Below, piece by piece: positions 2,314 to 60,030 of a DNA stretch of 64,000 nt; positions within the stretch are counted from its first letter, which is position 1, and every line of letters begins with the position of its first letter. The position numbers and the translations under genes were made by a program. Under the pieces are notes generated by a model. It saw nothing but the letters and a program-made list of their open reading frames with translations. It searched no databases and had not been told where the DNA came from. Source of the stretch: Gemmatimonadota bacterium (GTDB lineage Bacteria; Gemmatimonadota; Gemmatimonadetes; Longimicrobiales; Gaopeijiaceae); assembly GCA_034521595.1 (NCBI GenBank), contig JAXHMG010000003.1, positions 1,440,001 to 1,504,000 on the forward strand, written 5' to 3'.

Positions 2314-4800
2314 TCAGAACGCGATGTCCAACCCCACGTTGATCTGTCTACGGGGGCCGGGAAGGATGCCCGAGCTCAGGTTCGCCTGCGGCTGCCCGGG
2401 GTTCGAGTGGAGCCGTGAACCGATGTAGACCGCGTCGAGCAGGTTCTTGGCGGTGACCGAGAGAGTGACCCGGTCGTTCACGGCGTATCGGGCCGCGGTG
2501 TTGAAGATGTGGTAGGCGGGCACAGGACCCGTGTCGCCGCGGTTGTACGTCTCCGTAACGTTCTCGAAGTCCGTGAAGACCTCGTCCACGTACTGGACGT
2601 CCGTTCTCAAGGAGAGGCCCCACGGGAAGGTTCGGGAGAGTCCCGCCGTCACGGTGTGTCGCGGTGCGTACGTGAGCTCGTTGCCCGCGATGTCCACCTC
2701 GGCGCCCCCTGCGCGCACGGCGGAGCTGACGACACCCTTCAGGACTTCGGTGTCCAGGTAGGTGTAGCTCACGTTCAGGTCCGGCAGCACCGGGCTCAGC
2801 TCGGACGCCGCGAGGGTGGCTCCGAGCTCCGCACCCCGATTCCGGACTCGGCCCAGGTTCTTGAAGGCCGTGCCGCGGCCGGCCGCGACCAGGTTCTCGA
2901 CGGTCACGTGAAAGCCGGAAGCCTCCAGGGAGAGCCAGGGAAGGTTGGACCGGACCCCGAGCTCCGCGTTCCAGCTCTTCTCCGCGTCCAGGTCCAGCCC
3001 GCCCTCCGGCACGTCGTCGCCGAAGTTCACCACGCGGAGCGTGCCGCTGGAGGGCGGCGTGAATCCCCGGTGCACGCCCCCGAAGAGCTCATGGTCTCCC
3101 AGCCTGTAGTTGACTCCGAGCCCCGGGAGGAGCACGACGGTGGTCCGGTCCTGGTAGAGTGAGCCGCTGAGCCGATCCACCTGCTGCTGCTCGAAGAGCT
3201 CGAACCGGACGCCCGGCCGCACGGATAGGTTCCCGAAGCGGACCTGTTCCGAGGCGTGGAGCGCGAGCGCGGTCGTCTCGTAGTGGTGGCTCTGACCAAC
3301 GATGTCCACCGTCTCCGGCTCCTCCGGATCCCCGGTATAGTAGATCCCCTCGCGAGCGTCCGGAGCGTCGCCCCGCTTCTTGTCGTCGATGAACCGCTCG
3401 AAATGCACCCGGGCTCCGAAGTCGAGGGTCGCTTCCCCGCCGAAGAGCGTGTGCCCGACCTCGTAGCTCCGCTCGATGCCTCCCACGTAGAAGGTCCGCA
3501 GGATCCCGAGGTTCTGCCGGCCCCCGCCGACGCGCACCAGGTCCCCCGGCTGATAGGGAGGGACCGGCCGGATCTCGCCCTCCTGGTAGTCGGAAGCACG
3601 GACGAAGACGTCGTCTTCCCGCCACCAGCGGCGGTCGAAGAAGCTGAGGTAGAGCCGGGTGTCGTGTTGGAGGCGGGAGCTCTCCTGCTCGTTCATGATG
3701 AGGTCCAGCGACGAGCGGAAGACCCGGAAGTTGTCGTGCTCCTTGGGGTTGAACCTCGGGTTGCTGCGGAACGAGTACTCGGTGAGCCCGGTGTACGTGG
3801 CGTTGGAGTTCTCGTAGTTGACGTTCGCCTTGAGGTAGGCTACCCGGTCGTCGCTTCGCAGGAGCTGGGCCTTGAAGGTGCCGTTGGCCTGCTCGAAGGC
3901 GTTGTTCTGGCGAAAGCCGTCGCCCCGCTTGTAGAGGAGTTGAAGCTCCGGGCGAAAGGTGCGGCTACCGCCCAGCGGCAGGTCCGCCATGAGACTCGCG
4001 TAGCCGTTGTTTCCGGCGGTGAGACTCGCCACCGCCCTATCGGATCCACCGGGGCGGCTCGTCAGGTAGTTCACCACGCCGCCCATCGTCTGCGGGCCGT
4101 ATCGGATGGCGCCGCTTCCCTTGAGGACCTCGACCCGGTCGATCCGCTCCGCGGGGGGGTTGTAGTACATGTTCGGGTACATGTAGGGAGCCGGCTGGAT
4201 CGGGATCCCGTCTTCCAGGATGAGGACCCTGGAGCTCCGGCGCGGATTGAGGCCGCGAATGCCGATGCTCAGGCGGGAGTTCCCCATCCCGTCATCAGCG
4301 AATCCGTGCACGCCGGGCACGTACTGGAGGAGCTCCTGCGTCCCGATGGGTTGGAGCAGATCCACCGCAGGGGCGGAGATGTGGGTCGCCGTGCCGGGCA
4401 TTCCCTCCGATGCCGCCGAGGCGTCGGCGAGGATCCGGAGAGGGGCGAGAGAGATGGCTCTGGGCTCGAGTACGACGTCGAGGGAGGTGGCCGCGTCGGC
4501 GCGAACCACGACCGCCTCGCTCGTCCGGCCGTACCCGAGGAGCTCGAAGACGACACGCACCTCTTCGCCGGCCGGAAGATCCGCCACCACGTAACGCCCG
4601 GTCGGGTCCGTGATCGTCGACCCCAGGACGCGCCCGCCGGACTCCACGCTCACGGACGCTCCCGACACGGGCATGCCCGTGTCCGCGTCCACCGCCTGAC
4701 CGGTGATCTCGCCCCCGGATCCCGGCTGAGCTTGAGCGACGAGGCCGGCCGGAGAGATCAGGAGAAGCAGCCAGAGTCGAACGAGGTATCGCATGATCAA
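2314..4800 (-). CDS. TonB-dependent receptor, FecA-like, with N-terminal carboxypeptidase-regulatory-like domain
   Basis: Signal peptide; plug motifs IGIRGLNPRRSSRVLILEDGIP and VEVLKGSGAIRYGPQTMGGVVN; C-terminal Phe. Confidence 0.9.
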   Translation of the reverse strand: MIMRYLVRLWLLLLISPAGLVAQAQPGSGGEITGQAVDADTGMPVSGASVSVESGGRVLGSTITDPTGRYVVADLPAGEEVRVVFELLGYGRTSEAVVVRADAATSLDVVLEPRAISLAPLRILADASAASEGMPGTATHISAPAVDLLQPIGTQELLQYVPGVHGFADDGMGNSRLSIGIRGLNPRRSSRVLILEDGIPIQPAPYMYPNMYYNPPAERIDRVEVLKGSGAIRYGPQTMGGVVNYLTSRPGGSDRAVASLTAGNNGYASLMADLPLGGSRTFRPELQLLYKRGDGFRQNNAFEQANGTFKAQLLRSDDRVAYLKANVNYENSNATYTGLTEYSFRSNPRFNPKEHDNFRVFRSSLDLIMNEQESSRLQHDTRLYLSFFDRRWWREDDVFVRASDYQEGEIRPVPPYQPGDLVRVGGGRQNLGILRTFYVGGIERSYEVGHTLFGGEATLDFGARVHFERFIDDKKRGDAPDAREGIYYTGDPEEPETVDIVGQSHHYETTALALHASEQVRFGNLSVRPGVRFELFEQQQVDRLSGSLYQDRTTVVLLPGLGVNYRLGDHELFGGVHRGFTPPSSGTLRVVNFGDDVPEGGLDLDAEKSWNAELGVRSNLPWLSLEASGFHVTVENLVAAGRGTAFKNLGRVRNRGAELGATLAASELSPVLPDLNVSYTYLDTEVLKGVVSSAVRAGGAEVDIAGNELTYAPRHTVTAGLSRTFPWGLSLRTDVQYVDEVFTDFENVTETYNRGDTGPVPAYHIFNTAARYAVNDRVTLSVTAKNLLDAVYIGSRLHSNPGQPQANLSSGILPGPRRQINVGLDIAF

Positions 4801-5027
4801 AAGATCCTGGGGTTCTGGTGGCGCGAGCGGACCTCGTGCGTCCGGCTCGAATCCGCGGGGGTCGCCTCCGTTCCCGAAACCTCGAGATCGAACATCATCA
4901 CCCCGTAGCTTCCCTCGTCTTCGGGCTCACGCTCTTGCGGCGGGAGGATCGGGTCGTCCTCGCAGCCGGGGAGGACGAAAGCCGCCATCCCGATCAGGAT
5001 CAGATGGCGTGCGTGCCGGAGGGCCAT
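4797..5027 (-). CDS. Small hypothetical lipoprotein, first gene of the iron operon
   Basis: Lipobox-like VLPGC; its stop overlaps the receptor ORF start; purine-rich RBS-like AAAGGGAA upstream. Confidence 0.6.
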   Translation of the reverse strand: MALRHARHLILIGMAAFVLPGCEDDPILPPQEREPEDEGSYGVMMFDLEVSGTEATPADSSRTHEVRSRHQNPRIF

Positions 5028-5094
5028 GGGCGATTCCCTTTTCGGAGCGAATGCGTCGAGGCGCGGTGCCGCTCGCGCTGAGCAAGGTTATCCG

Positions 5095-5134
5095 GAATGA
5101 TTCTTATTAGATGAGATTGAAACCAATTCTCATC
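5095..5134. promoter_or_regulatory. Fur-box-like operator region
   Basis: AT-rich GAATGATTCTTATTA plus imperfect palindrome GATGAGATTG-AAAC-CAATTCTCATC, ~70-100 bp upstream of the receptor operon in GC-rich DNA. Confidence 0.65.
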
Positions 5135-5304
5135 TGCGGCCCAAGCTAGGCGGGGTCGCTTGGGCGGTCAAGTGAGGGGCGTGAGGGAGCGGTGCCGCTC
5201 GCTTGGGACGTAGCGCCCACGCCACTACGGCACGATCATCGAGACGGCGGGACATGAACTCGTGGTGAACGACGCATCACGGGAGCCCGCTCCCGGCCGT
5301 CACC

Positions 5305-5709
5305 TCATCCGAGGATTCGGAAATCCACTCCCACCGCCTCGTACGTCGACACCGCTCGGCCGTCACGGGTGAGGAGCACGGCCCCGGCTCGCTTGGCCGT
5401 GGCCCCGATGAGGGCGTCGTACACGCTTCCCCCGGAGATGCCGCGACCGAGGGAAGACCTCAGCAGTGAGCGGTAGTCGCTTCCGGGAAGGATCAGGAGC
5501 TCCGGCTCGAATCGGTCGCCCAGGAACGCTTCCACTACCGCGGCCGGGGCACGGTGCGGCGGAGGAAGGCGCGTAAGAACCGAGTAGCTCTCCAGGAGGA
5601 CGTGGGCCGGAAGATGCGCTTCCCCCGGCACCGCCTCCCGAGCCGACTCGTGAGCCTCGTGCCAACTCGCGAACAGCGCCACCACGACGCTGGTATCGAC
5701 AGCGATCAC
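5305..5709 (-). CDS. vapC: VapC-family PIN-domain toxin
   Basis: MIAVDTSVVV...ESYSVLTRLP...YDALIGATA...LLTRD acidic PIN motifs; 4-bp overlap with the antitoxin. Confidence 0.9.
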   Translation of the reverse strand: MIAVDTSVVVALFASWHEAHESAREAVPGEAHLPAHVLLESYSVLTRLPPPHRAPAAVVEAFLGDRFEPELLILPGSDYRSLLRSSLGRGISGGSVYDALIGATAKRAGAVLLTRDGRAVSTYEAVGVDFRILG

Positions 5710-5951
5710 CGCCGCGTACGCTCCAGGGTCTCCCGCACGATCTCGTCGGTGAGGGGAGGAAGCTCCTCGTCCGGAACCGCGGCGCTGCCACCGCTTCCCT
5801 CGACCAGGGACATCGGAGTGGCCGCGGGTTCGATCTCGATCCTGCCATCGCGCTCGCGGATGTCGAGGAGCTCGCCGCCACGTAGGCCAAGTCGCTGGCG
5901 GAGAGCTTTCGGAATGACCACCCGCCCCGCACCATCAATGGTAGATCTCAT
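5706..5951 (-). CDS. vapB: AbrB/MazE-fold antitoxin (VapB)
   Basis: MRSTIDGAGRVVIPKALRQRLGL swapped-hairpin signature, upstream of the PIN toxin. Confidence 0.9.
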   Translation of the reverse strand: MRSTIDGAGRVVIPKALRQRLGLRGGELLDIRERDGRIEIEPAATPMSLVEGSGGSAAVPDEELPPLTDEIVRETLERTRR

Positions 5952-6099
5952 GGGTTGAAAATGGTATCACGCCGCCGCGACGGCAATGTATAACGGTTCG
6001 GGAAGCGGCAGCGGCTCCAGTCTTCGGTGCACACGTGGGACGCTTGCGGCCGGCTCAGCGATGCTCGTATGCTACGAGTGATCGCTTCGGGCTCGCCAC

Positions 6100-6525
6100 T
6101 GGCCCGGACCGCTACCGGACCGACGCGGACGGCGACCCCCGCCTCCCGCTCGGCTCCCAGCTCCCGACCCGCTTCGCCATCCCGTCCCTACACCGCGCGC
6201 GTCCCGGGGTCATCGTCTTCTCCGCCCGCGGCGAGTACCGGGGCGGACACGTGCAGAGGCCGCCAACGACTACTGGTTCGACGCCGACTACTTCAAGCTG
6301 CGCAGCGTGTCCGCCACCGTCCCCGTCGGCTTCGCGTTCCCCGACCGAGTCACCGAGGCGCTCCTCACCGTCAGCCTCGCGCACGCCCTCACCTGGTACG
6401 AGGACGTGCCCTGGTGGGACGTCGAGATCCCGGGCAACGAGGGCGCCAACGACGACGGCGTCGGGACGTCCGAGCGCGTGCCGGCGCCGACGACGCTGAC
6501 GTTCAGCTTACGGGTGCGGTTCTGA
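6100..6525 (+). pseudogene. C-terminal remnant of a SusC/RagA-like TonB-dependent receptor
   Basis: VIVFSARGEYRGGH in one frame, then DADYFKLRSVSATVP...ERVPAPTTLTFSLRVRF* in another. No N-terminus or start; left edge approximate. Confidence 0.55.
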
Positions 6526-6628
6526 GGCATGCCGGACGGCCCGGTCGAGCCGGCTTCATTGACCACCGGTCGCCACGGCTTATGCTTCGAGTCTCGCCCC
6601 ATCTCTCTAGCCGCACCCCGAGCGCCCC

Positions 6629-7858
6629 GTGAGCCGACTTTCGCTATCGAAGGACCGCATCAAATTCCTCTTGCTGGAAGGCATACATCCGGCGGCCCGG
6701 GAGGCGTTGCGCGAGGCCGGCTACACCAATGTCGAGTCGCACGCGGGATCGCTGACCCCCGACGAGCTCGAGAAGGCGATCGCCGACGCCCACTTCGTGG
6801 GCATCCGCTCGCGCACGCAGCTCACGGCCGACGTGTTGGATGCGGCGGAGAAGCTCACGGCGGTCGGCTGCTTCTGTATCGGCACGAACCAGGTGGACCT
6901 CGACGCGGCGGAGCTGAAGGGTGTGCCGGTCTTCAACGCGCCGTTCTCCAACACCCGGAGCGTGGCCGAGCTGGTGCTGGCCGAGGTGGTGTTCCTCCTT
7001 CGCGGCATTCCCGCCAAGAACGCCGCCGCGCACCGCGGCGAGTGGACCAAGTCCGCGGCTCACTCCTACGAGATGCGCGGCAAGAAGCTCGGCATCGTCG
7101 GCTACGGTCACATCGGCAGCCAGCTCGGCGTGTTGGCCGAGGCGCTCGGCATGGAGGTCATCTACCACGACGTCGAGAACAAGCTACCCCTGGGCAACGC
7201 CTCGGTCCGTGACCACCTGTCGGACCTGCTGGAAGAGGCCGATGTCGTGACGCTGCACGTACCCGAGACGCCCGCGACCCGGATGATGATCGGCCCCGCG
7301 GAGCTCGCGACCATGCGCGCCGGCACCTACTTCGTCAACGCCTCCCGGGGGAGCGTGGTCGACATCGACGCCCTGGCCGAGGCGCTGGAGTCGGGCCACC
7401 TGGCCGGCGCTGCCGTGGACGTCTTTCCCGAAGAGCCGGAATCCAACAGCGATCCCCTGGTCTCGCCGCTCACGGAGTTCGACAACGTGATCCTGACGCC
7501 CCATATCGGGGGCAGCACCCAGGAAGCCCAGAAGAACATCGCGCTGGAAGTCGCCGGCAAGCTCGTCAAATACTCGGACAACGGCTCCACCACCCAAGCC
7601 GTCAACTTCCCCCAGGTGTCCCTGCCGGAGAACGAGGAGTTCAGGCGTATCCTCCACGTGCACCGCAACGTCTCCGGCGTCCTCGAGAAGATCAACCACA
7701 TCTTCTCCGAAGAAGGCATCAACGTCGCCGCCCAGTATCTACAGACCTCCCCCCGCGTGGGTTACGTGGTGATGGATGCCGAAGTCGACGACGCCTGGGG
7801 TCTGGTCGATCGGCTCAAGGGGATCGACGGCACCATCCGCACCCGACTTCTCTACTGA
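6629..7858 (+). CDS. serA: D-3-phosphoglycerate dehydrogenase (E. coli-type, ACT domain)
   Basis: SLSKDRIKFLLLEGIH, GIRSRTQ, GCFCIGTNQVDL, TPHIGGSTQEAQ; 409 aa. Confidence 0.95.
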   Translation: MSRLSLSKDRIKFLLLEGIHPAAREALREAGYTNVESHAGSLTPDELEKAIADAHFVGIRSRTQLTADVLDAAEKLTAVGCFCIGTNQVDLDAAELKGVPVFNAPFSNTRSVAELVLAEVVFLLRGIPAKNAAAHRGEWTKSAAHSYEMRGKKLGIVGYGHIGSQLGVLAEALGMEVIYHDVENKLPLGNASVRDHLSDLLEEADVVTLHVPETPATRMMIGPAELATMRAGTYFVNASRGSVVDIDALAEALESGHLAGAAVDVFPEEPESNSDPLVSPLTEFDNVILTPHIGGSTQEAQKNIALEVAGKLVKYSDNGSTTQAVNFPQVSLPENEEFRRILHVHRNVSGVLEKINHIFSEEGINVAAQYLQTSPRVGYVVMDAEVDDAWGLVDRLKGIDGTIRTRLLY

Positions 7859-7868: not shown

Positions 7869-9287
7869 ATGAGCCACCCCGACCACCAGCAGGCACTCGA
7901 CCGCATCCGCGCGACCGTCGGCCCGAAGGGCGTGGTCGACGACGACGCCCGAGAGGGCTACCTCGTCGACGAACGACAGCTCTACCGGGGTGAGGCCGTG
8001 CTCATCGTGCGTCCCGGCACCACCGATGAAGTCTCCCGAGTCATGGCGATCTGCTACGAGGCGGGTCTGGGCATCGTGCCCCAGGGCGGCAACACCGGCT
8101 ACTGCGGCGGCGCCACGCCCGACGATGCCGAGGGCCAGGTCCTCCTTTCGCTGTCCCGGATGAACGCCGTGCGCGGCATCGACCCGGTCGGCTTCACGAT
8201 GACCGCGGAGGCGGGCGTGGTGCTCGCCCATGCCCAGGAGGCGGCGGCCGAGAAAGACCTCCTGTTCCCCCTCAGCATGGCCTCGGAGGGGAGCGCCGAG
8301 ATCGGAGGCGCGCTGGCCACGAACGCGGGCGGGCTGGCGGTGCTCCGCTACGGCACCGCCCGGGAGCTGTGTTTGGGCGTGGAAGTCGTGCTGCCCGACG
8401 GCCGCGTCATCCACGGGCTTTCGGGGCTGAGGAAGGACAGCACGGGATACGACCTGAAGTCGTTGTTCTGCGGCGCCGAAGGAACCCTCGGCATCATCAC
8501 GGCGGCGACGCTCAAGCTCTTCCCGCAGCCGAACGCTCGCCAGACCGCATGGCTGGCCGTGGCCGACGCCGCCGCGGCCTGCCGGCTTCTCGGCCGGGCC
8601 CGGCGGGAGAGCGGCGACAGCGTCACCTCCTTCGAGTACGTCATTCGGCCGTCTCTGGAGCTGGCCCTCGGGTACAGTGACAGCCTCACGGATCCGTTGG
8701 ACGACCCTCACGAGCACTACGTCCTGCTCGAGCTCTCCTCCGGCCAGAGCGAGGAGCAGCTCCGCGAGGTGAGCGAGGCGATCCTGATGAGCGGCATGGA
8801 GGAAGGTGAGATCCTCGACGGCGTGATCGCCGAATCGAGTCAGCAGCGCGGCCAGCTATGGCAGCTGCGCGAGACCATTCCCGAGTCCGAGAAGCACGAG
8901 GGTGGTTCGGTGAAGCACGATATCTCGGTGCCCATCGACCGGATCCCCGAGTACCTGGCGGCCGCGTCGGACCGACTGGCCGACATCGCTCGATGCCGGT
9001 ACTCCATCTACGGTCACATCGGCGACGGCAACCTGCACTACAACCTGCTGGCGCCGGCGGGTGAGGACCCCGAAGCCTTCAAGCGCGAGCACGGTCGGGC
9101 GCTGTCGGAGTGCCTGCACGACCTCGCCGCGGAGCTCGGCGGCAGCTTCAGCGCCGAGCACGGGGTCGGAAAGCTGAAGAAGGGCGAGCTCGCCCGCTTC
9201 AAGGATCCCGAATCGCTGGCGACGATGCGCGCCATCAAAGCCGCGCTCGACCCGAAAGGGCTCATGAACCCCGGCAAGGTCCTCTGA
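7869..9287 (+). CDS. FAD-binding oxidoreductase, D-2-hydroxyglutarate dehydrogenase-like (GlcD/D2HGDH family)
   Basis: PQGGNTG, GHIGDGNLHYN and SAEHGVG motifs; ATG 10 bp after the serA stop. Confidence 0.85.
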   Translation: MSHPDHQQALDRIRATVGPKGVVDDDAREGYLVDERQLYRGEAVLIVRPGTTDEVSRVMAICYEAGLGIVPQGGNTGYCGGATPDDAEGQVLLSLSRMNAVRGIDPVGFTMTAEAGVVLAHAQEAAAEKDLLFPLSMASEGSAEIGGALATNAGGLAVLRYGTARELCLGVEVVLPDGRVIHGLSGLRKDSTGYDLKSLFCGAEGTLGIITAATLKLFPQPNARQTAWLAVADAAAACRLLGRARRESGDSVTSFEYVIRPSLELALGYSDSLTDPLDDPHEHYVLLELSSGQSEEQLREVSEAILMSGMEEGEILDGVIAESSQQRGQLWQLRETIPESEKHEGGSVKHDISVPIDRIPEYLAAASDRLADIARCRYSIYGHIGDGNLHYNLLAPAGEDPEAFKREHGRALSECLHDLAAELGGSFSAEHGVGKLKKGELARFKDPESLATMRAIKAALDPKGLMNPGKVL

Positions 9288-9300
9288 CCCCGGGGCTTCA

Positions 9301-9405
9301 TCAGGGGATCAGCTCCACCACGTCTTCATCCCCGGGCACGAGCGATGCGATCGCTTGGTCGAACGTGGCCAGCCTACCGCCCCGGTCGAGGGACAGCGCC
9401 AATAT
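9301..9405 (-). pseudogene. C-terminal fragment of a split VapC (PIN) toxin
   Basis: Own translation ILALSLDRGGRLATFDQAIASLVPGDEDVVELIP*, the typical end of mycobacterial-type VapC. Confidence 0.65.
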
Positions 9406-9409
9406 TCGA

Positions 9410-9633
9410 CGATTGATCGTATCGCGGGCGCGTCCAGGGTCGCTGTATCCCACACGACTTCGAGATCCACGGCGAATTAATCATGCACGATCTTGTGCCT
9501 GAGACCGGTCACCTTTCTCCAGGGAAGCTCCGGATGTTGGTCCGTGAGCCCGCGTCATCAAAGAGGTCGTGAGACGAGACACGCCGTGTTCTCGGCAGAT
9601 CTGTGCCAAGCGATCGGAGTCGAAGTCAACCAT
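9410..9633 (-). pseudogene. Collapsed MNT-HEPN (nucleotidyltransferase/DUF86) TA remnant
   Basis: MVDFDSDRLAQICREHGVSRL (MNT N-terminus) joined by deletion to HPELPWRKVTGLRHKIVHD*FAVDLEVVWDT (HEPN RxxxxH motif; TAA where Tyr is expected). Confidence 0.65.
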
Positions 9634-9690
9634 ACGGGAATTCTCTATCCAGAGCCCGTCAGGGCCAACCAAACCCTATCGATAGCCACG

Positions 9691-9845
9691 TCATAACCTT
9701 CAGATGTTTCCGACGTGGCCACCACCGGCCGGTCCGCGCGGGCCTGATCGAGAATACGCTGGACCCCGCTTCCGGGCCACAACACCTTCGGGCCATGTAG
9801 AGGGAGCGACCGCAGGGAGCGGACCCGGAACCATATTTGTTATGG
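9691..9845 (-). other. attC-like recombination site
   Basis: On the minus strand: CCATAAC-AAAT-ATGGTTCCG ... CGGAAACAT-CTGAAG-GTTATGA, i.e. complementary outer and inner boxes, in the intergenic gap between two TA modules. 155 bp, longer than classic attC. Confidence 0.5.
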
Positions 9846-9884
9846 GACGTGTGCCGCCGCGCGACCCAACAAGAACGGTCCCAA

Positions 9885-10115
9885 CTAACGTCGTTCTCCA
9901 CGGATGATCAGGACCTCACCCGGCTGCAATCTTTCGGACGCTGCCACGGCCTCGTCCAAGAGAGGCACGAGATCAATCACTCGGTTCGTGACAGCGGCCA
10001 GCACGACGACCCGAATCTCATGATCCTTCAGACTTTGCTGGTACTGGAGGTTCTGGTCAGCGGTGAGGAAGACATCAAATGATGCAGCCGCACGCCGGAG
10101 GACTCGCACCCGCAA
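9885..10115 (-). pseudogene. DUF5615-like PIN toxin with internal N-terminal deletion
   Basis: LRRAAASFDVFLTADQNLQYQQ motif; the usual N-terminal LLDE...GW segment is missing. Confidence 0.6.
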
Positions 10116-10341
10116 CCAAAGCTTCCTGGGCGAGCCTGAGCACGCTCATGGCCTGCTCTCGGGAAACGGACGGAAAGTCCTCCAGAAACTCATCGAGCGT
10201 CTGCCCGGAGGCCAGATAATCGATCAGGTTCTGAACCGGGACCCGCGTCCCGGAGAATACCGTTGTGCCGCCAAGAATTTCGGGATCTTGGCTCAAGAGT
10301 TCTGGATTCGTCTGCATCTCGACCACCTCCGTGTCTCTCAA
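10075..10341 (-). CDS. DUF433 antitoxin
   Basis: QDPEILGGTTVFSGTRVPVQNLIDYLASGQTLDEFLEDFPSVSREQA; real start may be the second Met. Confidence 0.85.
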   Translation of the reverse strand: MRDTEVVEMQTNPELLSQDPEILGGTTVFSGTRVPVQNLIDYLASGQTLDEFLEDFPSVSREQAMSVLRLAQEALVAGASPPACGCII

Positions 10342-10404
10342 TCTACACCGGGACGGTCGGCCAGGCTCCCCGCTTCCTCATCCCAAAGGCACATGTCCCA
10401 TAAC

Positions 10405-10692
10405 TTCCGATAGCCGACCACGCGACCGAACGGACCGGGCCTCTCGGTGGCGGCGGACACCTCGTCCGTCCAGAAGGTGTGGCCGTTGATGGCTCGCAGA
10501 CGACGCAGCAACGTGATCGCCTCCTGCGGGCTTCGCGCGTCGGGAATCGCACGAGTGTTGCTGGATACGCGCACGAACCCCGACTCGGTCAGGGGTCAGG
10601 TCGCCCACCCCTGCCCGTGGACGGTACGGAACCAGTCGAGAGCGCGGGCATGATGGATGTGGTTGGGCCACGAGCACGTTGACGTCGAGCAG
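10405..10692 (-). pseudogene. N-terminal part of the split VapC toxin
   Basis: LLDVNVLVA, a frameshift, then NHIHHARALDWF...WATCPLTESGFVRVSSN...HTFWTDEVS...VVGYRK; similarity stops at 10404. Confidence 0.7.
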
Positions 10693-10819
10693 CCGGAACG
10701 TCCAGGTCGTGCTGAACGGATTCGGGACGCCGCAGGGCTTCACGCACGAGCGACGAGATCACGGACCCCATACGTTCGCCCCGTTCCCGCGCGAGGCTCC
10801 GGGTTGCGCTCCGCAGCAT
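10693..10819 (-). pseudogene. Truncated CopG/RHH-type antitoxin of the split vapC
   Basis: ATRSLARERGERMGSVISSLVREALRR resembles VapB RHH helices; the N-terminal MRTT strand is missing. Confidence 0.5.
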
Positions 10820-10911
10820 GAAGCCGTAGTCGTGACAGGGTTGGAGTGGCCGGGCTGTGTGCCGGACACGTGGCCCGGCGGCGTGGAGTGCTACTCGATC
10901 CGCGAGGCCCC

Positions 10912-13575
10912 ATGAGTTCCTTTCCGCACCTCCGCACCATCGGCCGACCTTTCCCGTCGATCCTGTCGGCCGGTCTCCTCGTGACCCTTGCGTCCGCCTG
11001 CGGCGACAGCTCACCTAGCGAGCCGACGCCGCCCGGCGGTGAGCAGGTCGCGGCCGTGGAGGTCCAGCCCGGAGCGGACACGCTCTTCGCGCTCGACGAT
11101 ACGGTGACGCTGACCGCCGTGGCCCGGGACCAAGCCGGCGAAATCGTGTCCGACGCGGGCATCTCGTGGCGGTCCTCGGCCCCGAACGTCGTCGTCGTCG
11201 ACGGGAATGGGACGGCAACGGCCGTGGGCAACGGCGCCGCGGTGATCACGGCCTCCGCGGCGGATGCCGAGGGCACGGCGGACCTGGCGGTAGCCCAGCT
11301 CGCTTCGAGCGTGCAGGTGACCCCGACCAGCGCGGTCCTCACCACCGTCGGGGACACCGCCCGCTTGAGCGCGGAAGGACAGGACGAGAACGGCAACGAG
11401 CTAGCGGGGGCCGACGTCGTGTGGCAGTCGGAGAACCACGCGGTGGCCACCGTGAGCCCGAGCGGGCTGGTCACCGCCCGGGGGAGCGGCGAGGCCGTCA
11501 TCACCGCCACCGTCCAGGACGTGCCCGGGCTCGCCGATGTCACCGTCGACCGGACGGTCGGGGGGCTCCGGTTCATGGTCGCCCCCTCCGACGCCGTGGC
11601 CGGCGAGGCCATCGACCCGGCGGTCCAGGTGGAGGTGGTGGATACCGCCGGGAACCGAGTGGAGGACCTGGAGCTCGCCGTCACCCTGGGGCTCGCCAAC
11701 GCCCAGACGCCGGCGACGCTCGAAGGCACCCGGACCGTAGGGGCCACCGCCGGCGTGGCCTCGTTCAGTGGCCTCTCGGTGGACCGGGTCGGGACCCACA
11801 CGCTCCGGGCCGTGGCCGGCACGGACACGGCCACGAGCGCACCGTTCGACATCGAGCCGGCCGAGGCCGCCGCGCTGCGCTTCGGCGCCCTGCCCTCCAC
11901 GGGGACCGCCGGCGAGGTCCTGGCGCCGGCGGAAGTGCGGGTGGAGGACGACTTCGGCAACCTGGTTCCGACGGCGAGCCCGACGGTGTCCGTTCGTCTC
12001 GAGGACGCGGACACCACCGCGCTCTCCGGCACCACGGCCGTGACCGCCGAGAACGGGATCGCCACCTTCGACGACCTGTCCGTGACCGAGGCCGGCGAGC
12101 ACGCCCTTACCACCGCGGTCGACAACGATGACAATATGGCCAGCGCGACAGGAGGGCCGCTCGAGATCACACCGGCCGCAGCGCACGGGCTCGCGTTCCG
12201 GGTTCAGCCGGATGCCGTGGAGGGCCACGAGTTGATGGAGCCGGCGGTAGAGGTGGTGGTCCGGGACACCTTCGGGAATCGGGTGCCGTCCGCGGATGTC
12301 GACGTCACCATCGGCCTGGGCCAGAGCCCCTCTTCGGGCCCCGATCCCGGCCTCGGCGGCACGTTGACGGCGGCGACCACCGACGGCGTCGCCGTCTTCG
12401 ACGCCCTGCGCGTCGATCGGCCGTACGACGGCTACACGATGCTGGCGAGCGCGTCGGGCCTGGAGTCCGCGGAGAGCACCCCGTTCTCCGTGAATCTGAC
12501 CTTCACCGATGTGGCCGTCGGTGGATCCCATACCTGTGCCGTCACCCAAGGCGGCGAGATCTACTGCTGGGGCGACAACGACTCCGGTCAGCTCGGGACC
12601 TCCTCGGTCGACGCCACGGCCGTGCCCGTGCGCGTCGAGGCGAATCTCAACTTCGGGACCGTCACGGCCGGCCGGTCGCACACCTGCGCGACCCTCCGGG
12701 CTCTCACCGTCCAGACCCCGTACTGCTGGGGGTGGAACGAGTTCGGCCAGCTCGGCGTCGGAGACCGAGAGGACCGGGCCGTCCCCACGGCCGTGGACGG
12801 CCCCGCCATGACCCGGGTGTCCGCCGGAACCGACCATACCTGCGGCCTCAACAGCGACGGCGTGTACTGCTGGGGCTCCAACAGCACGGGTCAGCTCGGC
12901 CAGCCCGGCACGTTCGAGGCGTCGCAGGTCAGCCCACGCCAGACGATCGGCGGGGGATTCCAGGCCGTCGCCGGGGGCGACCTGCACAGCTGTGCGGTGG
13001 ACACCGACGGCACCGCGTACTGCTGGGGCCACAATGACGCGGGCCAATTGGGCGACGGCAGTCATACCACCGCGACCTCCCCGGTCACGGTGGACGACTC
13101 CGGGGGGGCGGTCGTGTTCGAGACCATCACGGCCGGCGTCACGCAGACGTGCGGCACGTTTCCGGGCGAGGACATCGTGTTCTGCTGGGGAGCCAACAAC
13201 GGCGGCCAGCTCGGGACGGGCGATATGACATCCTCGACGACGCCGAGGCTGACCGTCGGCCCCGACCTCGTCGCGGTCGACGCGGGCTCCGGCTATACCT
13301 GCGGGATCAGCAACGCCTCGGAGGCCATGTGCTGGGGCGCGAACGGTCCCTGGCTCGGCCTGGGCGAGTCCGCCTACGCTGCCAACGTCCTGTCCCCGAC
13401 GGCCGTGCCGGTGGACGGAACCTTCACGGCCATCGAAGCCTCGCACGCCGCCGGGACGCATACTTGTGCGTTGACGACGGACGGGACGGTCTACTGCTGG
13501 GGAACGGGGCGGGCCGGTGAGCTCGGGAACGGCTCGGCCACCGACCGCTACAGGCCCACGCCGGTAATCCAGTAA
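10912..13575 (+). CDS. Surface lipoprotein with Ig-like (Big_2) domains and C-terminal RCC1/BLIP-II-like propeller
   Basis: Lipobox ASAC; WRSSAPNVVVVDGNG and WQSENHAVATVSPSG Big_2 motifs; seven CWG repeats of the HTC...YCWGxNxxGQLG type. Confidence 0.85.
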   Translation: MSSFPHLRTIGRPFPSILSAGLLVTLASACGDSSPSEPTPPGGEQVAAVEVQPGADTLFALDDTVTLTAVARDQAGEIVSDAGISWRSSAPNVVVVDGNGTATAVGNGAAVITASAADAEGTADLAVAQLASSVQVTPTSAVLTTVGDTARLSAEGQDENGNELAGADVVWQSENHAVATVSPSGLVTARGSGEAVITATVQDVPGLADVTVDRTVGGLRFMVAPSDAVAGEAIDPAVQVEVVDTAGNRVEDLELAVTLGLANAQTPATLEGTRTVGATAGVASFSGLSVDRVGTHTLRAVAGTDTATSAPFDIEPAEAAALRFGALPSTGTAGEVLAPAEVRVEDDFGNLVPTASPTVSVRLEDADTTALSGTTAVTAENGIATFDDLSVTEAGEHALTTAVDNDDNMASATGGPLEITPAAAHGLAFRVQPDAVEGHELMEPAVEVVVRDTFGNRVPSADVDVTIGLGQSPSSGPDPGLGGTLTAATTDGVAVFDALRVDRPYDGYTMLASASGLESAESTPFSVNLTFTDVAVGGSHTCAVTQGGEIYCWGDNDSGQLGTSSVDATAVPVRVEANLNFGTVTAGRSHTCATLRALTVQTPYCWGWNEFGQLGVGDREDRAVPTAVDGPAMTRVSAGTDHTCGLNSDGVYCWGSNSTGQLGQPGTFEASQVSPRQTIGGGFQAVAGGDLHSCAVDTDGTAYCWGHNDAGQLGDGSHTTATSPVTVDDSGGAVVFETITAGVTQTCGTFPGEDIVFCWGANNGGQLGTGDMTSSTTPRLTVGPDLVAVDAGSGYTCGISNASEAMCWGANGPWLGLGESAYAANVLSPTAVPVDGTFTAIEASHAAGTHTCALTTDGTVYCWGTGRAGELGNGSATDRYRPTPVIQ

Positions 13576-49535: not shown

Positions 49536-49552
49536 ACCCGCGGCAGCCGCAG

Positions 49553-49635
49553 TGCCGGGGGCGGGAATCGAACCCGCATGGGATTACTCCCGGGGGATTT
49601 TAAGTCCCCTGCGTATACCATTTCGCCACCCCGGC
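49553..49635 (-). tRNA. tRNA-Leu (anticodon TAA); CCA not encoded
   Basis: GCCGGGGTGGCGAAATGGTATACGCA-GGGGA-CTTAAAA-TCCCC...GGTTCGATTCC...CCCGGCA; long variable arm. Confidence 0.95.
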
Positions 49636-49688
49636 TTCATGTTGCCCCACAACCACTTACGCCGTCTTCGGTAAGCTGCGATTCCACG

Positions 49689-49714
49689 GCGGGGTGAGTT
49701 TGCGGGGTGAGTTT
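49689..49714. repeat. Tandem 13-bp direct repeat, candidate integrase arm-type sites
   Basis: GCGGGGTGAGTTT twice, between the tRNA and the integrase stop. Confidence 0.6.
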
Positions 49715-49732
49715 AGCTACGTACCTGCTCAT

Positions 49733-50961
49733 TCAGCGGACCTCCCGAAGCTCCGCTCCGTGCGTAACCACACGGAGCATAGTCTCGTCATCCGGACGCT
49801 GGTAGGCCAGCTTTAGCGCTTCCAGGCTGGACCATCCGCCCGCCTGAGCCACGTCCACGTCGGGCAGGTTCTTCCTCGAACTGGCCCAGAGCCTTCGATA
49901 CGCATGCCAGAGGGAGCCCTCCTGGAGTTCGAGTCCGGCCTTGTCCTCGGCGCTCCGGAGCCAGGTCGCCGCATCGTAGTAGGTGATGGGCTCCTCGGGA
50001 TTCTGTGGGTTCGGGAAGAGCGGCCCAGTCCCTACCCTGCCCTGTCTCGCCCGCTTCGCGCTGGCCGCTTCCAGGGCATGCCGTACCGTCGGGGAGATCG
50101 GACACCGCCATCGCTTCCCCATTTTGTCGCTGTCCTCCGGCCAGACGATGGCGCCCCAGGGCGCGGCCTCGGTGGCCTCGAGGTCCAGGTCCTCCAGCCT
50201 GAGTTGGCACACCGCGGAAACCCGGCGCCCGGTACCGATCACCGACTTCGAAGAGCTCGGGCAGGTAGCTCTCGATGAGCTTCCCACCGACCTGCATCTT
50301 CACGTCCCGGTAGACGCCCCTGATCGCATCCACCCGGTCATGTGTGGCCACTGGCCGAGCCGGATTCCGCTCCTTCGGAATTTCGAGGCCGCGCGTCGGA
50401 TCCCGGTCGAGGAGCATCTGATCCTGCTCGTCCCGGAACTCCGTGGCCCACCGGCACACGGCGCGAAGCCACGCGCAGTCCTTCTCCACGACCCGGTCCC
50501 GAACGGGCCGCCTCTTCGTCGCTGGGACGCTCCGGCCCCTGGCGTTTATGGCTCCGGAACGGCGCTCCCGCACGAAGGCGTCCCACTGGCGGCGCGAGCA
50601 GCGTGGTCAGATCGAAGCCCGCTCCGAGCACTTCGGTCCAGCAGGGCGGCGTGTCGCGCGTCCGCTCGGCGGCTCGCCTCTCTCTTATCGGGCGTCGCGA
50701 TGCTCCAGGTACAGTTGGACGTATGCAGGCCACCGTGGGCTTCGCCGACGATACCTTCTTGCTGCCCTTCCGCAGCTCCGCGGAGAGCTCATCGGCATAA
50801 TCCATCGCCCGCTCCCGGTCGCCGTGCTTGAGGGAGCGTTTGACCTCGCGGCCATCCTCCCAGACCGAGACGTAGATGCTCGCCCGGCCCGGCCGCTCGT
50901 AGACCCGGACCTTGTGTCCGTGCCGCCCGGCGGTGTAGCTCCACGTTCGTTTCTTCCCCAT
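49733..50961 (-). pseudogene. Tyrosine integrase (frameshifted in this sequence)
   Basis: TGRRVSAV (R), WHAYRR (HxxR), GGW and AY catalytic motifs; N-terminus MGKKRTWSY; spread over at least three frames. Confidence 0.85.
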
Positions 50962-50971
50962 CGCTGGCCTC

Positions 50972-51199
50972 CTACGGATCGAGTTCGGCCGCCTCCAGGG
51001 CGTCGGCAAGCTCCGCGTGCCGCCTGGACCACCGGCGAAGCGCCGCCACAAGGGCATCCCTGGTGGCGGGCGTCATCCGGCGCTCCCCGTCGCGGATGGC
51101 GACGAGGAGGCCGTGAGAGACCCCCGCCGCTCGGGCAAGGGCGCGCATGGACGCCGGACTGCCTTCCAGTACGCTCTGAAGTGCGTCCCTTATCTCCAT
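50972..51199 (-). CDS. Small XRE-like HTH protein
   Basis: SMRALARAAGVSHGLLVAIRDGERRMTP. Confidence 0.7.
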   Translation of the reverse strand: MEIRDALQSVLEGSPASMRALARAAGVSHGLLVAIRDGERRMTPATRDALVAALRRWSRRHAELADALEAAELDP

Positions 51200-51240
51200 G
51201 TTGTGACCATATTGGTTACCTTCATGGGCTCTCGCAAGAG

Positions 51241-51616
51241 CTATGACTCCCTCGACCGATGAAGACGCAGTGTCCGGTCCAGGATCTCCGACTTCGCGGC
51301 CTGTTCCTCCTCCCCCGCCCGACACCCAGGCTTCCGGGGCACGTCCACGACGCGGATCCGGGGCGCGTGCTTCGTACCGACGTTGTCGATGTCGCCGCGC
51401 GCCACGAGATGCTGGAGGTGAGAGTACGAATACCCGCCGAGCTGGGCCGCCTCCTCCAGCGTGACCTCACGCAGCTTCCTCGGCCACGGCCGCCGCCTCA
51501 ACCTGGTCGGCATGCCGCTCGCAGGCGATAGCCAGACGCTCGTCACCGTAGGCACGGAAGGTCTTGGCTTCCATGCGCCAGGTCTGCACCAGAGCCGCGA
51601 GCGACGCCGATCTCAT
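51241..51616 (-). pseudogene. Excisionase-like HTH protein (frameshifted)
   Basis: MRSASLAALVQTWRMEAK..., then VTLEEAAQLGGYSYSHLQHLVARGDIDNVG...PRIRVVDVPRKP in another frame. Confidence 0.55.
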
Positions 51617-51720
51617 TACTCAGTGGGGGGCTTGCGCGCGGGCGAGGTTCACCGACGGCCTCCACGGGGCAGAGGCAGGCGCCGGCTCCCCCCGCCTGGC
51701 GGCGACATACCTCGGCGTAA

Positions 51721-51812
51721 GTGACGCATTTGACGCAGCCCGGTATAAAGAGCGTTCCCGCGCGCGTGCGTGCGAAAACGGTGGATAAGCAGAAATGCGT
51801 CCCATGCGTCAC
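51721..51812. repeat. Inverted GACGCA iteron pair, putative replication origin
   Basis: GTGACGCATTTGACGCA ... TGCGTCCCATGCGTCAC (15/17 inverted match) at the 3' end of the primase-helicase. Confidence 0.55.
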
Positions 51813-54135
51813 TACCCGCTACGCCGATTCCAAGAGGCTGCGTTGGATCCGTCACGGCTCCCACCTCCGCGGCTGCTCGCTGGATGTCACGCGGAGTCCG
51901 AGGTATCCTGCGGACCCCGCCGGTGCCCCGCTTGGGCGGGTAGCCCCGCTCCTCCAGCGTAGACGCGAAACGCTTCTTTGAGCCGCCATACTCCCCGCGG
52001 CATCGGCCCACCGCTTCCATGAAGCGTAGAGCGTGCCTGCTGGCTCCCACGCCGACGGGTCCACATCAGCAGCATTCCTCCATCCACTGTGCAATAGCGT
52101 CCTCGGACTCCAGATACGATTCCGTCGCGGCGCGCACGATCGAAGGCGGGTTGAGCCCCTGGTGCTGCCAGGCGAGGCGTGCGTCGATGCACCAGCGGAG
52201 GATCGCCGGCCACTCCCGCTGGAGCTTCTCGGGTAACTCGTGATCTCGCTCCGCTTCCGGGATGGTGACGGTGAAGGGCATCAGATGAAGCCGGCGCCGC
52301 ATGGCCTCGTCGACACCACGGAGCGAGGGCCGGTGATTACCGATCACAAAGACCTTGAACTGCGGCTGGAACTCGAAGAAGTCTTGCCTCATGAAGCGCG
52401 CGGCGATCGGGTCGCCTCCGGTCAGCGCCTTGATTCGCGCCTCCGCCCAGCGCTTCCCGTCCTCCGTCTCCGATCCGATCGCGAGGCGGACTCCGCGGAG
52501 CCGTGCGAGTTCGGTCGGGTGGCGCTCGTTCTTCGACACCATGAGCAGCTCGGTCGGGATCGAGATGGCGTACGCGCCCAAGACGGCCTTAATAGTGTTG
52601 AGAGTTACGCCCTTCCCGTTCGCGCCCCCACCGTGCCCGAACGTAAACGCGTGCTCACGAATCGAGCCAGTCAGCGCGTAACCGGAGAAGCGCTGCAGAT
52701 ACTCGATCAGGTCCGGGTCGCCACCCGTGATGCGCTCGAGGTGCGCCGTCCAGATCGGGGCTGGCGTGCCCGGGGGTGCGGGAGCGACGGCCGTGAGCTT
52801 CGTGATGTAGTCCTCGGCTCGAGCGGGGTGTAGCTTCACCGGTCCGTAGATCCACCGTCCCACCCGGGGTGCCAAGCAGCCACGGATCGGCATCCCATTG
52901 CCCAACTTCGGCCGCCTGCGCAACGTTCGAACGAGCGAGGCCGATGACCTTCGTGATCGTCTCGGCTTGGCGCAGCCGCCGAGCGGTGTCCACCTTCTCG
53001 GGCCCGAGCTGGTCAGCGCGCTCACGGAGATATCCCCGCGCTCGGGTCATGTACTCGAGCGTCTCGTCCTGGACCCACACCCTGCCATTCCAAAAGACCC
53101 ACGCACCCCATGCGGCGACGTGACGCGCGTCGCCCCTCCAGCAGTCGCCGAGGTCGAGCGCCAGGCCGTCGTGGGTCAGGTCGCGGTGGCCCTCCTCCAC
53201 CTGGTGCTCGGAGTGGGGCGGCTCGACCACGGGCGCGCCTGGCGGCGGAGCTTGGGGGCGTTGGGCCACCTCCTCCTCCCCGGTTCCCACTCCGGCGCCA
53301 CCCGCGCGAGCTGCTTGAGCTCTTTCACCGATCCGCCAACGTCGAGCCAATCGCTGACGTCGCCCTTCGGTGGGAGGTCAGGTAGCTCGAGGACCTTCAC
53401 GGTCTTGGCGACCCCATGGAGCGAACGAGCGACCTGCTGCGCGTGTTCGCGGCCTGGCTCGTCGTTGTCGATGATGATGACGACGACTTGGCCGCGGAGA
53501 GCCTCGGAGTACTCGCGTCGCCACTTGCCGGCGCCGCCGGGGCACGTCGTCGCTACGATCCCGAGTTCGGTCAGTCGGTCGGCGTCCTTCTCACCCTCGA
53601 CAACCGCCACCGCCTTCGCGGACGCAAGCGCTTCCGGAAGGCGGTATAGTGGGAGACGACCTTGTCGCATCTGCAGCGCTCGGGATTGCCGCCGAGTCCC
53701 CAGGCCCAGCCGTCCGCGGCCTCGGGACAACGATGCTGCTGGCGGAAATCCTTGGGAGCGAGCCGCACGACGCGGCCTACCGGCTCGCCGCTGGCGTCCA
53801 CGTACGTGTACTCGGCGACGATCGCGGGGCGAGAGCCGTTGCTGTTGCCGTTCGACCCCGAGGCTGATCCCCAGCTCACGCACGAGACGTTGCGCTGCGT
53901 CGCGCGGAGCCATGCCCCACACAGCCGACGCGAGCGAGACCGGGGACCCTTTGAGCTCGCAGCCGTGACATTTCCCGGCGGTCCGGCCTCCCTCTCGGAA
54001 CACCGAGAACGACGGGTCGCCATCGTCGTGATCGGGCGACGGACATCGCCACCCAGCGCCGACCCTCTGGGCTCCGAGGACCTGCGCGAGCTGCTCGGGC
54101 GAGATTTCCGTGGCAATCCGGTCGTAGTCGATCAC
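51780..54135 (-). pseudogene. P4-family primase-helicase: CHC2 zinc finger, TOPRIM, D5_N, SF3 helicase (frameshifted)
   Basis: CPSPDHDDGDPSFSV...CHGC; VVEGEKDAD...DNDEPG; WVFWNGRVW; GGGANGKG; IKALTGGDPIAARFMRQDFFEF. 3' end approximate. Confidence 0.85.
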
Positions 54136-54229
54136 GTGACCCCAACCTCCGCAGATAGAGCCGGCCCGTCGAAGGGCACGGCGCGCCGGAAGGTGACGCC
54201 ATGACGCGTCGGCGCGGCGCGTCCGACCA

Positions 54230-54523
54230 TTAGAACTCGATTTCCTCGTCGTTGCGCGCAGCGTGCGACACAGGCGCAGATGGCTCCGGCTCACGTAACG
54301 GGATGGGGCCGGGACCACGCCCTATTCGCGAGTCCACACCGTACGGCAACGGCCAGGGCACGCACGTACGCCCCCCGCACCCGCAGTCGGCGGCGATGTA
54401 CCGGAGCCCGTGGGGCCCCAGCTCGCCCCGCAGAACAACGGCCTCCTCAAGCGGGATCCCGCACCACACGCAGGGTCGGTAGGCGGCGTCGCGGTAGGTG
54501 TCGAGCCGCAGGGCGAGCCTCAT
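54230..54523 (-). CDS. Small Cys-rich hypothetical protein
   Basis: MRLALRLD...CVWC...DCGC...EEIEF*; co-oriented with the primase. Confidence 0.4.
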   Translation of the reverse strand: MRLALRLDTYRDAAYRPCVWCGIPLEEAVVLRGELGPHGLRYIAADCGCGGRTCVPWPLPYGVDSRIGRGPGPIPLREPEPSAPVSHAARNDEEIEF

Positions 54524-54568
54524 GCCGACCTCGGCAGCCTCCGAGAGTAGGCGGGCGGTCGCGGGGCT

Positions 54569-54735
54569 CACTGACCCACCTCGAGATCGCGCCGAGCGGC
54601 CTCGACGGCCTCGCGGCGGATGTAGCCGAGAGGGGCTCCTTCCGGCGGGCAGCAGCAGCCTGGATGACCTTCTCTCGTCGTCCGCCAATCGCATCGCATA
54701 CGTGAGCCGGGGTGAGCCCGGCGTTAGGCGTGCCG
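54569..54735 (-). pseudogene. Small ribbon-helix-helix (DUF1778/MobC-like) regulator, frameshifted
   Basis: Joined frames read YAMRLADDE-KVIQAAAARRKEPLS-YIRREAVEAARRDLEVGQ*; AGGAGAGG RBS upstream. Confidence 0.45.
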
Positions 54736-54836
54736 TAGTACCTCTCCTGTGCGTATTGCGCAAAACAACTCGGTGCTTTATTCTGAGCAATTCTGGCACT
54801 TTGCGCAACATGACGCAATGCTCTCTTCTGAGGAGT

Positions 54837-56242: not shown

Positions 56243-56378
56243 GTCGGAGTCCCCGCCGTCCTCGTGTATCGTCGAGCGTGAGTCGCCGCTTATCGCCGTC
56301 CAGCGTGTAAGTCCACGGTCACCGCAGAGCTTACCGAGGGCACGCTTCCATCTGCCGTTACGGCCAGCCTGGTGACAG

Positions 56379-56846: not shown

Positions 56847-59987
<3,141 letters not shown>

Positions 59988-60030
59988 CGCTCTCCATCCC
60001 TCGAAAGCAAGGGGGACGTCCACGGAATCG

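Follow-up and report, generated by a model that had tools for sequence, protein, structure and literature searches.

A decayed vapC gene in a Gemmatimonadota genome, probably interrupted by two toxin–antitoxin integron cassettes

Introduction

The closest described systems are integron cassettes found outside integrons. In the sections of their preprint drawn on here, Loot et al. (bioRxiv 10.1101/2022.09.11.507474) describe the insertion of cassettes by the integron integrase IntI at genomic 5'-GWT-3' sites, a consensus reported for IntI1, with cleavage after the G and disruption of genes. Excision outside the insertion point is described there as deleting pieces of the genome, and single attC sites lacking an integron integrase (SALINs) and small clusters of attC sites lacking an integron integrase (CALINs) are suggested to arise by genomic insertion. 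The parts of Ghaly et al. 2021 (PMC8618304) used here place Gemmatimonadota among the integron-bearing phyla, name toxin–antitoxin (TA) systems as the commonest cassette functions and list, among the origins proposed for CALINs, off-target insertion through an IntI that lies elsewhere. Here we describe a locus in a stretch of 64,000 nucleotides (nt) from a Gemmatimonadota bacterium (contig JAXHMG010000003.1, positions 1,440,001 to 1,504,000), called the window below, in which a vapC toxin gene is, with a probability that we put at about 0.8, interrupted by two decayed integron cassettes with TA pairs, inserted via IntI at a secondary or 'attG' site.

The interrupted vapC gene

The host gene is preserved in the following parts (positions are those of the window throughout).

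10700..10810, minus strand: vapB-like remnant 5' of vapC (..RSLARERGERMGSVISSLVREALR..), without family assignment
10404..10695, minus strand: 5' part of vapC, codons ~3-103 (TIGR00028, protein match to P0002, tblastn)
9301..9405, minus strand: 3' part of vapC (ILALSLDRGGRLATFD..ELIP, stop 9303-9301), protein match to the P0002 C-terminus

The pseudogene is broken after codon K103 (10406-10404) and continues near 9405. A first-pass annotation, made from the letters of the window before any database search, had claimed that vapC was split by an insertion, and this is borne out by P0002, an intact relative of 142 amino acids (aa), which matches both halves: the middle part (10595-10404) at 81% identity over 70 aa and the tail (9405-9304) at 69% identity over 35 aa of its C-terminus. 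The annotation had also proposed comparing the halves with intact homologues for a possible mismatch of subfamily; because each half matches intact P0002, both are of one subfamily. When P0002 was used as a tblastn query, its residues 3-17 fell at 10695-10651, residues 14-106 at 10673-10395 and residues 102-142 at 9426-9304. The restart at 9405 stands as annotated; the break, placed at VVGYRK (10405), required a small correction to the K codon at 10406-10404, with about five codons, 104-108 (VTDAH in homologues), missing at the right junction. An apparent 'LWD' extension past K103 gives 2 identities in 6 residues and was taken as chance.

An open reading frame (ORF) piece at 10595-10341 matches the NCBIfam family TIGR00028 (VapC family toxin) with an E-value of 1.2e-6 over profile positions 41-109 of 143, the fragments scoring 28.8 bits against a curated cutoff of 73.6 and so falling short of full-length membership. 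Of 42 candidates from a protein search, 40 are relatives at E<=0.001; the majority are intact and 132-148 aa long, and two are named as VapC family toxins, one from Candidatus Palauibacter and one from a Gemmatimonadota metagenome-assembled genome (MAG). The window gene has further lesions besides the break, in that it lacks a start codon at the position homologous to that of its relatives, changes frame between residues 12 and 15 (tblastn), which on the codons would correspond to a deletion of about 11 nt near 10668, and has TGA at 10598-10596 in place of Cys39. With its frameshift, stop and insertion, the interrupted gene is a pseudogene of the TIGR00028 VapC family.

The vapB-like stretch has no match in Pfam, NCBIfam or PDB. 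Over 27 aa it shares 85% identity with P0166, a protein of 67 aa whose sequence runs on into the same VapC. In P0166 the VapC 'LAWPNHIHHARAL..' segment follows immediately on the vapB-like stretch, after which the sequence stops, so that the vapBC family of this locus seems to be in decay in other places as well. A second PIN-domain ORF, seemingly intact (5305-5709, minus strand; Pfam 5.9e-16), lies some 4 kb away from the dead vapBC, and the ORF upstream of it has no family match.

The insert and a related cassette array

The insert in vapC is about 1 kb long and has a guanine-plus-cytosine (GC) content of 0.59, against 0.67 for the vapBC parts and 0.67 for the whole window (direct computation); along the sequence, values of 0.58-0.61 across ~9300-10400 compare with 0.65-0.74 in the flanks. 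It gave no blastn match to plasmids. A DUF433 protein scan of genome contigs yielded at least 80 loci from many phyla (1,204,472 nt), the best identity among the matches listed being 77%, so that the window's source genome is not one of those listed. One of these loci, L001, is JAOTVA010000103.1, an 11,856-nt contig of a Gemmatimonadota MAG whose GC content of 0.62 lies between those of the insert and the host. In a blastn comparison of the window locus with the 80 loci, 40 loci besides L001 match only in the DUF433 coding part; the L001 blocks are collinear with the window over DUF433 (77%), the toxin (74%) and the 5' half of the attC (78%, 64 nt around the right arm of the inverted repeat described below), and a fourth match lies elsewhere on L001. 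In pairwise alignment the homology begins exactly at the G/TTATG of the left junction (the slash marks the crossover), so that the annotated start of the first unit, at the vapC break with G/TT, is that of the cassette in L001 as well. The insert comprises the following features.

9697..10403, minus strand: cassette 1 (707 nt), a DUF433/DUF5615 TA cassette with its own attC (blastn and pairwise alignment to L001, covariance-model match)
10075..10317, minus strand: DUF433 antitoxin gene, open, 80 aa (Pfam PF04255, 1.2e-17)
9885..10115, minus strand: DUF5615-type toxin remnant (60% identity over 70 aa to L001:3302-3625)
9691..9846, minus strand: attC1, long class, 156 nt (cmsearch with model R1, described below)
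9405..9696, minus strand: cassette 2 remnant, an MNT/HepT TA cassette without its own attC, beginning TTATGACGTGGC at the attC1 R' crossover
9571..9633, minus strand: the 21 N-terminal codons of MNT (nucleotidyltransferase antitoxin), with the frame lost thereafter
9405..9554, minus strand: HepT (HEPN), C-terminal half (Pfam PF01934, profile 70-118 of 120)

Pfam and the matches to L001 and to other proteins thus agree with the annotated contents, a DUF433/DUF5615 pair followed by an MNT-HEPN remnant. The DUF433 protein, whose relatives (4111 of 4126 candidate proteins at E<=0.001) are usually 74 aa long, has a C-terminal tail changed by a neighbouring deletion. This deletion is seen as a 105-nt in-frame gap at ~10098/10097 relative to L001 (105 gap columns in the pairwise DNA alignment) and takes away 35 codons of the N-terminal part of the toxin (RVLLDESLP.. 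in L001). The L001:3302-3625 toxin is DUF5615 by Pfam (6.3e-6), while the window remnant (ORF 10115-9885) has no Pfam match of its own; the small fragments in general (vapB, MNT, vapC ends, toxin remnant) have no Pfam or NCBIfam match. The MNT fragment, read from the ATG at 9633-9631, shows 95% identity over 42% of a 50-aa query (~21 residues) with an E-value of 6.5e-3 on 5.8 billion sequences, its matches being P0162 and P0163 of a Gemmatimonadota nucleotidyltransferase family (PF18765/PF01909); in tblastn against the 80 DUF433 loci it gave nothing below E 1.8. The HepT fragment matches PF01934 at 2.8e-5, and at 4.1e-12 once an in-frame TAA (9479-9477) is read as X. A Phd/YefM-like remnant considered for the ORF at 9645-9839 was rejected, as it has no Pfam or NCBIfam match and the stretch falls inside attC1.

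The relative in L001 belongs to an array. Twelve attC-like repeats, all on the same strand and ~100 or ~160 nt long, start with ..nATAAC and end with ..GAAC GTTATGnGACATG, the AAC and GTT being invariant in 12/12, and delimit 11 units of 311-3186 nt. TA or TA-like Pfam components occur in 8/11 units, namely DUF4258, PIN, DUF433+DUF5615, HicB/HicA, RelE-like+HTH, HigB-like+HTH and HigB_toxin+HTH. The DUF433/DUF5615 cassette of this array (3018-3752) has the same gene pair as the window (DUF433 77% identical in protein and 77% in DNA), the same start, GTTATGnGACATGnGCC, the same attC 5' half and complementarity of its own ends (14/17). It differs in having an intact 107-aa toxin and a short-class attC of 96 nt, where the window has the 35-codon toxin deletion and a long-class attC of 156 nt. 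The integron-cassette reading of the first-pass annotation draws its main support from this 12-site array, together with the model match given below. Four other Gemmatimonadota DUF433 loci (L002, L004, L022 and L025) show no attC-like arrays, so DUF433 pairs occur as ordinary loci too.

Some features of L001 are recorded here in their own right. Its attC sites fall into two size classes, ~96-100 nt (8/12 sites) and ~160 nt (4/12), the difference being a ~60-nt tip insertion. The unit at 3753-6938 (3.2 kb) carries, on the reverse strand, an FGE-sulfatase and a 526-aa beta-lactamase-family serine hydrolase, and must be a reversed cassette of uncommon size or else DNA other than a cassette that was inserted into the array. 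The ends of the contig, 2-109 and 11749-11856, repeat each other at 99% over 108 nt, which may reflect a circular contig, an assembly wrap-around or a duplicated cassette.

The attC site

An attC site is laid out as an R box, a spacer, an L box and a variable tip, bounded by an inverse core RYYYAAC and a core GTTRRRY (core-box consensus). Such sites are imperfect hairpins whose structure is better conserved than their sequence, and a hallmark of them is that the L box on the recombining strand has extrahelical bases. RNAalifold on the 12 L001 sites gave a consensus of 25 pairs, 13/25 with compensatory changes. In this fold an ATAAC/GTTAT stem is followed by an unpaired spacer, 5 nt long on its 5' side and 8 columns on its 3' side, then by a second stem of 8 bp (GGTTGCCG/CGGCAACC) and a branched tip. 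The trimmed alignment of these sites was made into a covariance model of 96 positions, R1. On the 80 loci R1 regains its 12 training sites (64.8-104.9 bits) and has 0 matches at E<=0.01 in the 79 other loci. In the 64-kb window it finds one match, 9846-9689 on the minus strand, over model positions 1-96 of 96, at 62.6 bits and an E-value of 3e-14, to be taken as rough. This site, attC1, has a 64-nt insertion relative to R1, which puts it in the long size class, and its parts are R'' CCATAAC (9845-9839), L'' (9833-9826), L' CGGAAACA (9712-9705) and R' GTTATGA (9697-9691). Each of the two 7-mers, CCATAAC and GTTATGA, differs from the core consensus at 2 positions, and the L''/L' pairing has one G.A mismatch or bulge.

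The first unit had been annotated as ending at 9839, which is where the R'' box of attC1 ends; the site continues as far as 9691, and the G at 9697 is the last base of the cassette. As attC1 extends to the R' at 9697-9691, cassette 1 spans 10403-9697 and cassette 2 starts at 9696. An alternative R' at 9783-9777 (GTTGTGG), which would give a 69-nt site, was rejected: its folds are not significant (z -1.1 and -2.2), and R1 places 9783 inside the 64-nt insertion. A dif/Xer-type (pdif-module) reading of CCATAacaaaTATGG was set aside because the architecture of the family and the G/TT signature suit attC better. In Rfam, a search of 9000-11200 gave a chance snoRNA match only (E 0.16) and nothing at attC1.

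When R1 was run on 8500-11500 with filters off, no second attC was found, the next best hit scoring 10 bits (E 0.21) on the opposite strand. This bears on the possibility that the locus is a relic of an integron or array that decayed in place. In that case vapBC would have been one of the cassettes, intI and the remaining attC sites would have been lost by decay, and no insertion into a chromosomal gene would have taken place at all. The L001 array does include a PIN cassette among its TA cassettes, and everything at the window locus is decayed, as such a relic would have it. Against it, no other attC is seen in that interval; the two parts of vapC lie on either side of the insert and together match a single protein from end to end, so that vapC was interrupted; the vapBC parts have the host GC of 0.67 and the insert 0.59; and the neighbouring genes carry ordinary metabolic or surface-protein Pfam domains, vapBC being flanked by a FAD-linked oxidase gene and a Big_2/RCC1 gene. 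We regard decay in place as very unlikely, and return to the insertion of cassettes into vapC.

Junctions and the 17-nt inverted repeat

The features at the two ends of the insert and of its first unit are these.

10402..10404, minus strand: left junction G/TT, G 10404 being the last base of vapC K103 and TT 10403-10402 the first cassette bases
10388..10404, minus strand: cassette start GTTATGGGACATGTGCC, arm of the extended R stem
9839..9855, minus strand: R'' arm GGCACACGTCCCATAAC, other arm of the 17-nt inverted repeat
9403..9407, minus strand: right junction, where HepT homology ends at gaa 9407-9405 and vapC homology restarts at ata 9405-9403

The inverted match of 16/17 at 9839-9855 and 10388-10404, already noticed in the first pass, is real in the sense that a 17-mer occurring twice at <=3 mismatches was seen in 0/100 dinucleotide shuffles, and no third copy of the arm at <=3 mismatches exists in the 64-kb window. 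Bases after G/TT in an array belong to the next cassette, so that a cassette start should match the cassette's own R'' and not that of the upstream site. This expectation, which the annotation had put forward as a rule of integron cassettes, was examined in L001 as complementarity between cassette start and R'' flank over the 10 nt past the 7-nt core. Own pairs have a mean of 6.8/10 (2, 8, 9, 8, 6, 6, 7, 8, 8, 6, 7), non-own pairs a mean of 3.99/10 with a maximum of 7 (n=133), and the difference is significant (Mann-Whitney p = 7.5e-6; observed sum reached in 0/20,000 permutations), so the rule holds in L001; the exception is one 311-nt unit, with 2/10. In the window the cassette start pairs with its own R'' at 16/17, and at 9/10 beyond the 7-nt core, against 9/17 and 3/10 for the attC1 R'' with the R' of its array context. 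The 17-nt inverted repeat is thus formed by the start of the cassette and the R'' end of that same cassette, an extended R stem split by the crossover, and this is the crossover signature of integron cassettes.

A different origin of the repeat, as terminal inverted repeats derived from a miniature inverted-repeat transposable element (MITE) or an insertion sequence (IS), would make the DUF433 pair part of an element that transposed into vapC. The 16/17 arms do bracket a unit of 566 nt, with 'AA' on both outer flanks, but there is no transposase, no target-site duplication beyond the trivial AA and no further copy in the 64 kb, so that the IS or MITE ends with target duplication considered in the first pass were not found. 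The insert also runs 430 nt past the right arm, that arm forms the 5' terminus of a structured site, 156 nt long, matching the L001 family over its full length, and in L001 the arms sit at array junctions with a common conserved GTTAT/ATAAC core. Transposition is already largely refuted by these points, and we give it next to no weight.

Array-context pairing in L001 reaches 4.3 of the 10 extra positions, against 6.8 for own pairs. A basal stem of ~17 bp in the L001 family might therefore form only between a cassette's own ends, the full hairpin then being present only in the excised circle. We consider this idea doubtful and offer it tentatively. If it were true, the asymmetry of the stem could act as a built-in switch of directionality, sites being weak in arrays, which would give stable TA-rich arrays, and strong in circles, which would make insertion efficient even where the genomic target is no att site, as in vapC.

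The right junction is less well preserved than the left. HepT homology reaches within one codon of the point where vapC restarts, and a second attC and vapC codons 104-108 (15 nt) are absent. The left junction reads AAG/TT, and with the right junction presumably deleted the target triplet is not legible. Entry of cassette DNA by illegitimate or homology-driven recombination, for instance after transformation, with no IntI and with a coincidental G/TT boundary, would account for a right junction without attC-derived structure, for the at least four other deletions at the locus and for the lack of any intI seen. It would leave to chance a left boundary that coincides, at single-base resolution, with the canonical crossover point of a cassette that has a relative in an array and a start that is intact and complementary to its own R''; a chance match of the exact base is improbable, and we think such an entry unlikely.

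The search for an integrase

No intI was found in the 64-kb window, by Pfam on called ORFs and by NCBIfam on the one recombinase fragment, in line with the first-pass statement that none lies nearby. Positions 1-49.5 kb hold 35 called ORFs, of which 30 have ordinary non-recombinase Pfam domains and 5 have no match, with no gap >=600 nt between called ORFs. The only tyrosine-recombinase signal is a catalytic-domain fragment of 188 aa (49736-50299), which adjoins a tRNA-Leu (49552-49635) and has no NCBIfam family at E<=0.01. The intI-free stretch is 9 kb on one side of the locus and 54 kb on the other. On L001, Pfam found no recombinase.

A decayed integrated island occupies 49552-64000, next to the tRNA-Leu and headed by the recombinase fragment. 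It includes a P4-type primase that is split between two reading frames, with D5_N at 52658-53377 and DUF5906/primase_Cterm at 52069-53046. The type I restriction gene hsdR (56850-59812) is broken into at least 5 pieces and hsdM (61355-63103) into 4, and an ORF with a CAP12/Pycsar-type TIR domain (63297-63998) runs off the window. Mobile DNA in this genome seems to be broadly pseudogenised.

Proposed route of insertion and classification

Direct evidence establishes that the inserted units are cassettes, where the attC and the left boundary lie to the base, which lesions the locus has, and that the 64 kb lack intI; the route that we propose from this is as follows. A circle of one cassette, or of two, drawn from a pool with L001-type attC sites, would have recombined via its folded attC into a non-att site in vapC, with the crossover between G (10404) and TT (10403-10402), in an integron-integrase reaction. 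The catalyst would have been an IntI whose gene lies elsewhere or has since disappeared. As to the order of insertion, both units could have entered in one two-cassette circle or through two successive insertions at the same junction. Later changes would comprise the loss of 35 codons of the DUF5615 toxin, a deletion fusing codon 21 of MNT to about position 70 of HepT and, at the right junction, a deletion that probably removed the second attC together with 5 vapC codons. The breaks in the vapC frame at other points would also be among these later changes.

Several observations weigh against this route. No IntI is seen in the window or on L001, and the link between the repeat family and IntI is one of architecture. 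The second stem shows no clear extrahelical bases, and in L001 the L stems are mostly perfectly paired; an unconstrained DNA fold of the site alone is not significant (z -1.1 and -2.2); none of the 12 training sites (64.8-104.9 bits) scores as low as attC1 (62.6 bits); and R1, on which the E-values depend, comes from a single contig with an effective sequence number of 1.77. The right junction lacks the attC-G/NT structure that the model predicts, so that an extra deletion has to be assumed. Finally, homologues have Q/K and then V (GTN) at the break, and an ancestral GTN after K103 would make the target GGT and not the GWT of the IntI1 consensus.

Set beside what characterises an integron cassette, R'' and R' cores bound the site, and a hairpin of R stem, spacer, L stem and tip is given by the L001 consensus fold and the full-length R1 match, the fold of the window site alone not being significant. 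The crossover falls at G/TT with own-end complementarity, and arrays of one orientation, which in integrons consist of short and mostly promoterless units, are seen for the family (12 sites on L001), the window holding two unit bodies and one site. The annotation had spoken of a decayed, CALIN-like array; the decay of the cassettes is confirmed, and the CALIN label does not apply, since a CALIN has at least two attC sites with no intI nearby and the window has one attC. A single attC with a coding sequence and no other att site or intI nearby is what was found here, so that by published definitions the window element is strictly a SALIN rather than a CALIN, though one with two cassette bodies.

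The locus offers a base-precise natural case of a cassette within a gene of the chromosome and away from any integron, from a phylum whose integrons have hardly been studied. It supports the view, proposed from experiments, that genomic insertion is one way in which isolated cassettes arise. A second outcome is a defined Gemmatimonadota attC family (96-position model, 12 sites) that can be used to seek the parent integron, and for annotation the locus explains why three TA systems show here as interleaved fragments.

Comparison with known systems

The attG insertions in the sections of Loot et al. (bioRxiv 10.1101/2022.09.11.507474) used here share with the window an attC-bearing cassette lying outside an integron and inside a disrupted gene, a crossover after G and the lack of an intI nearby, and the later deletion around the window insert matches the genome changes described there. 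Those sections concern assays in E. coli and Vibrio, whereas the window is a natural case in a Gemmatimonadota-like chromosome in which the host gene is itself a TA toxin; it also differs from the attG insertions described in having two cassette bodies with one attC, and a target triplet that is possibly GGT and not GWT.

CALINs, defined in 2016 and taken here as summarised in PMC8618304, are cassettes without intI, as in the window, but require a cluster of attC sites where the window has one. The TA cassettes of the Vibrio superintegron, as cited in the same source, are two-gene TA cassettes with their own attC, and L001 is such a TA-rich array. Unlike that superintegron, the present case concerns another phylum and another attC family, no integrase is seen, and the TA modules of the window are dead and cannot stabilise anything. 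The finding is a further instance of the known insertion of cassettes at genomic 'attG' or secondary sites, for which no new mechanism is needed.

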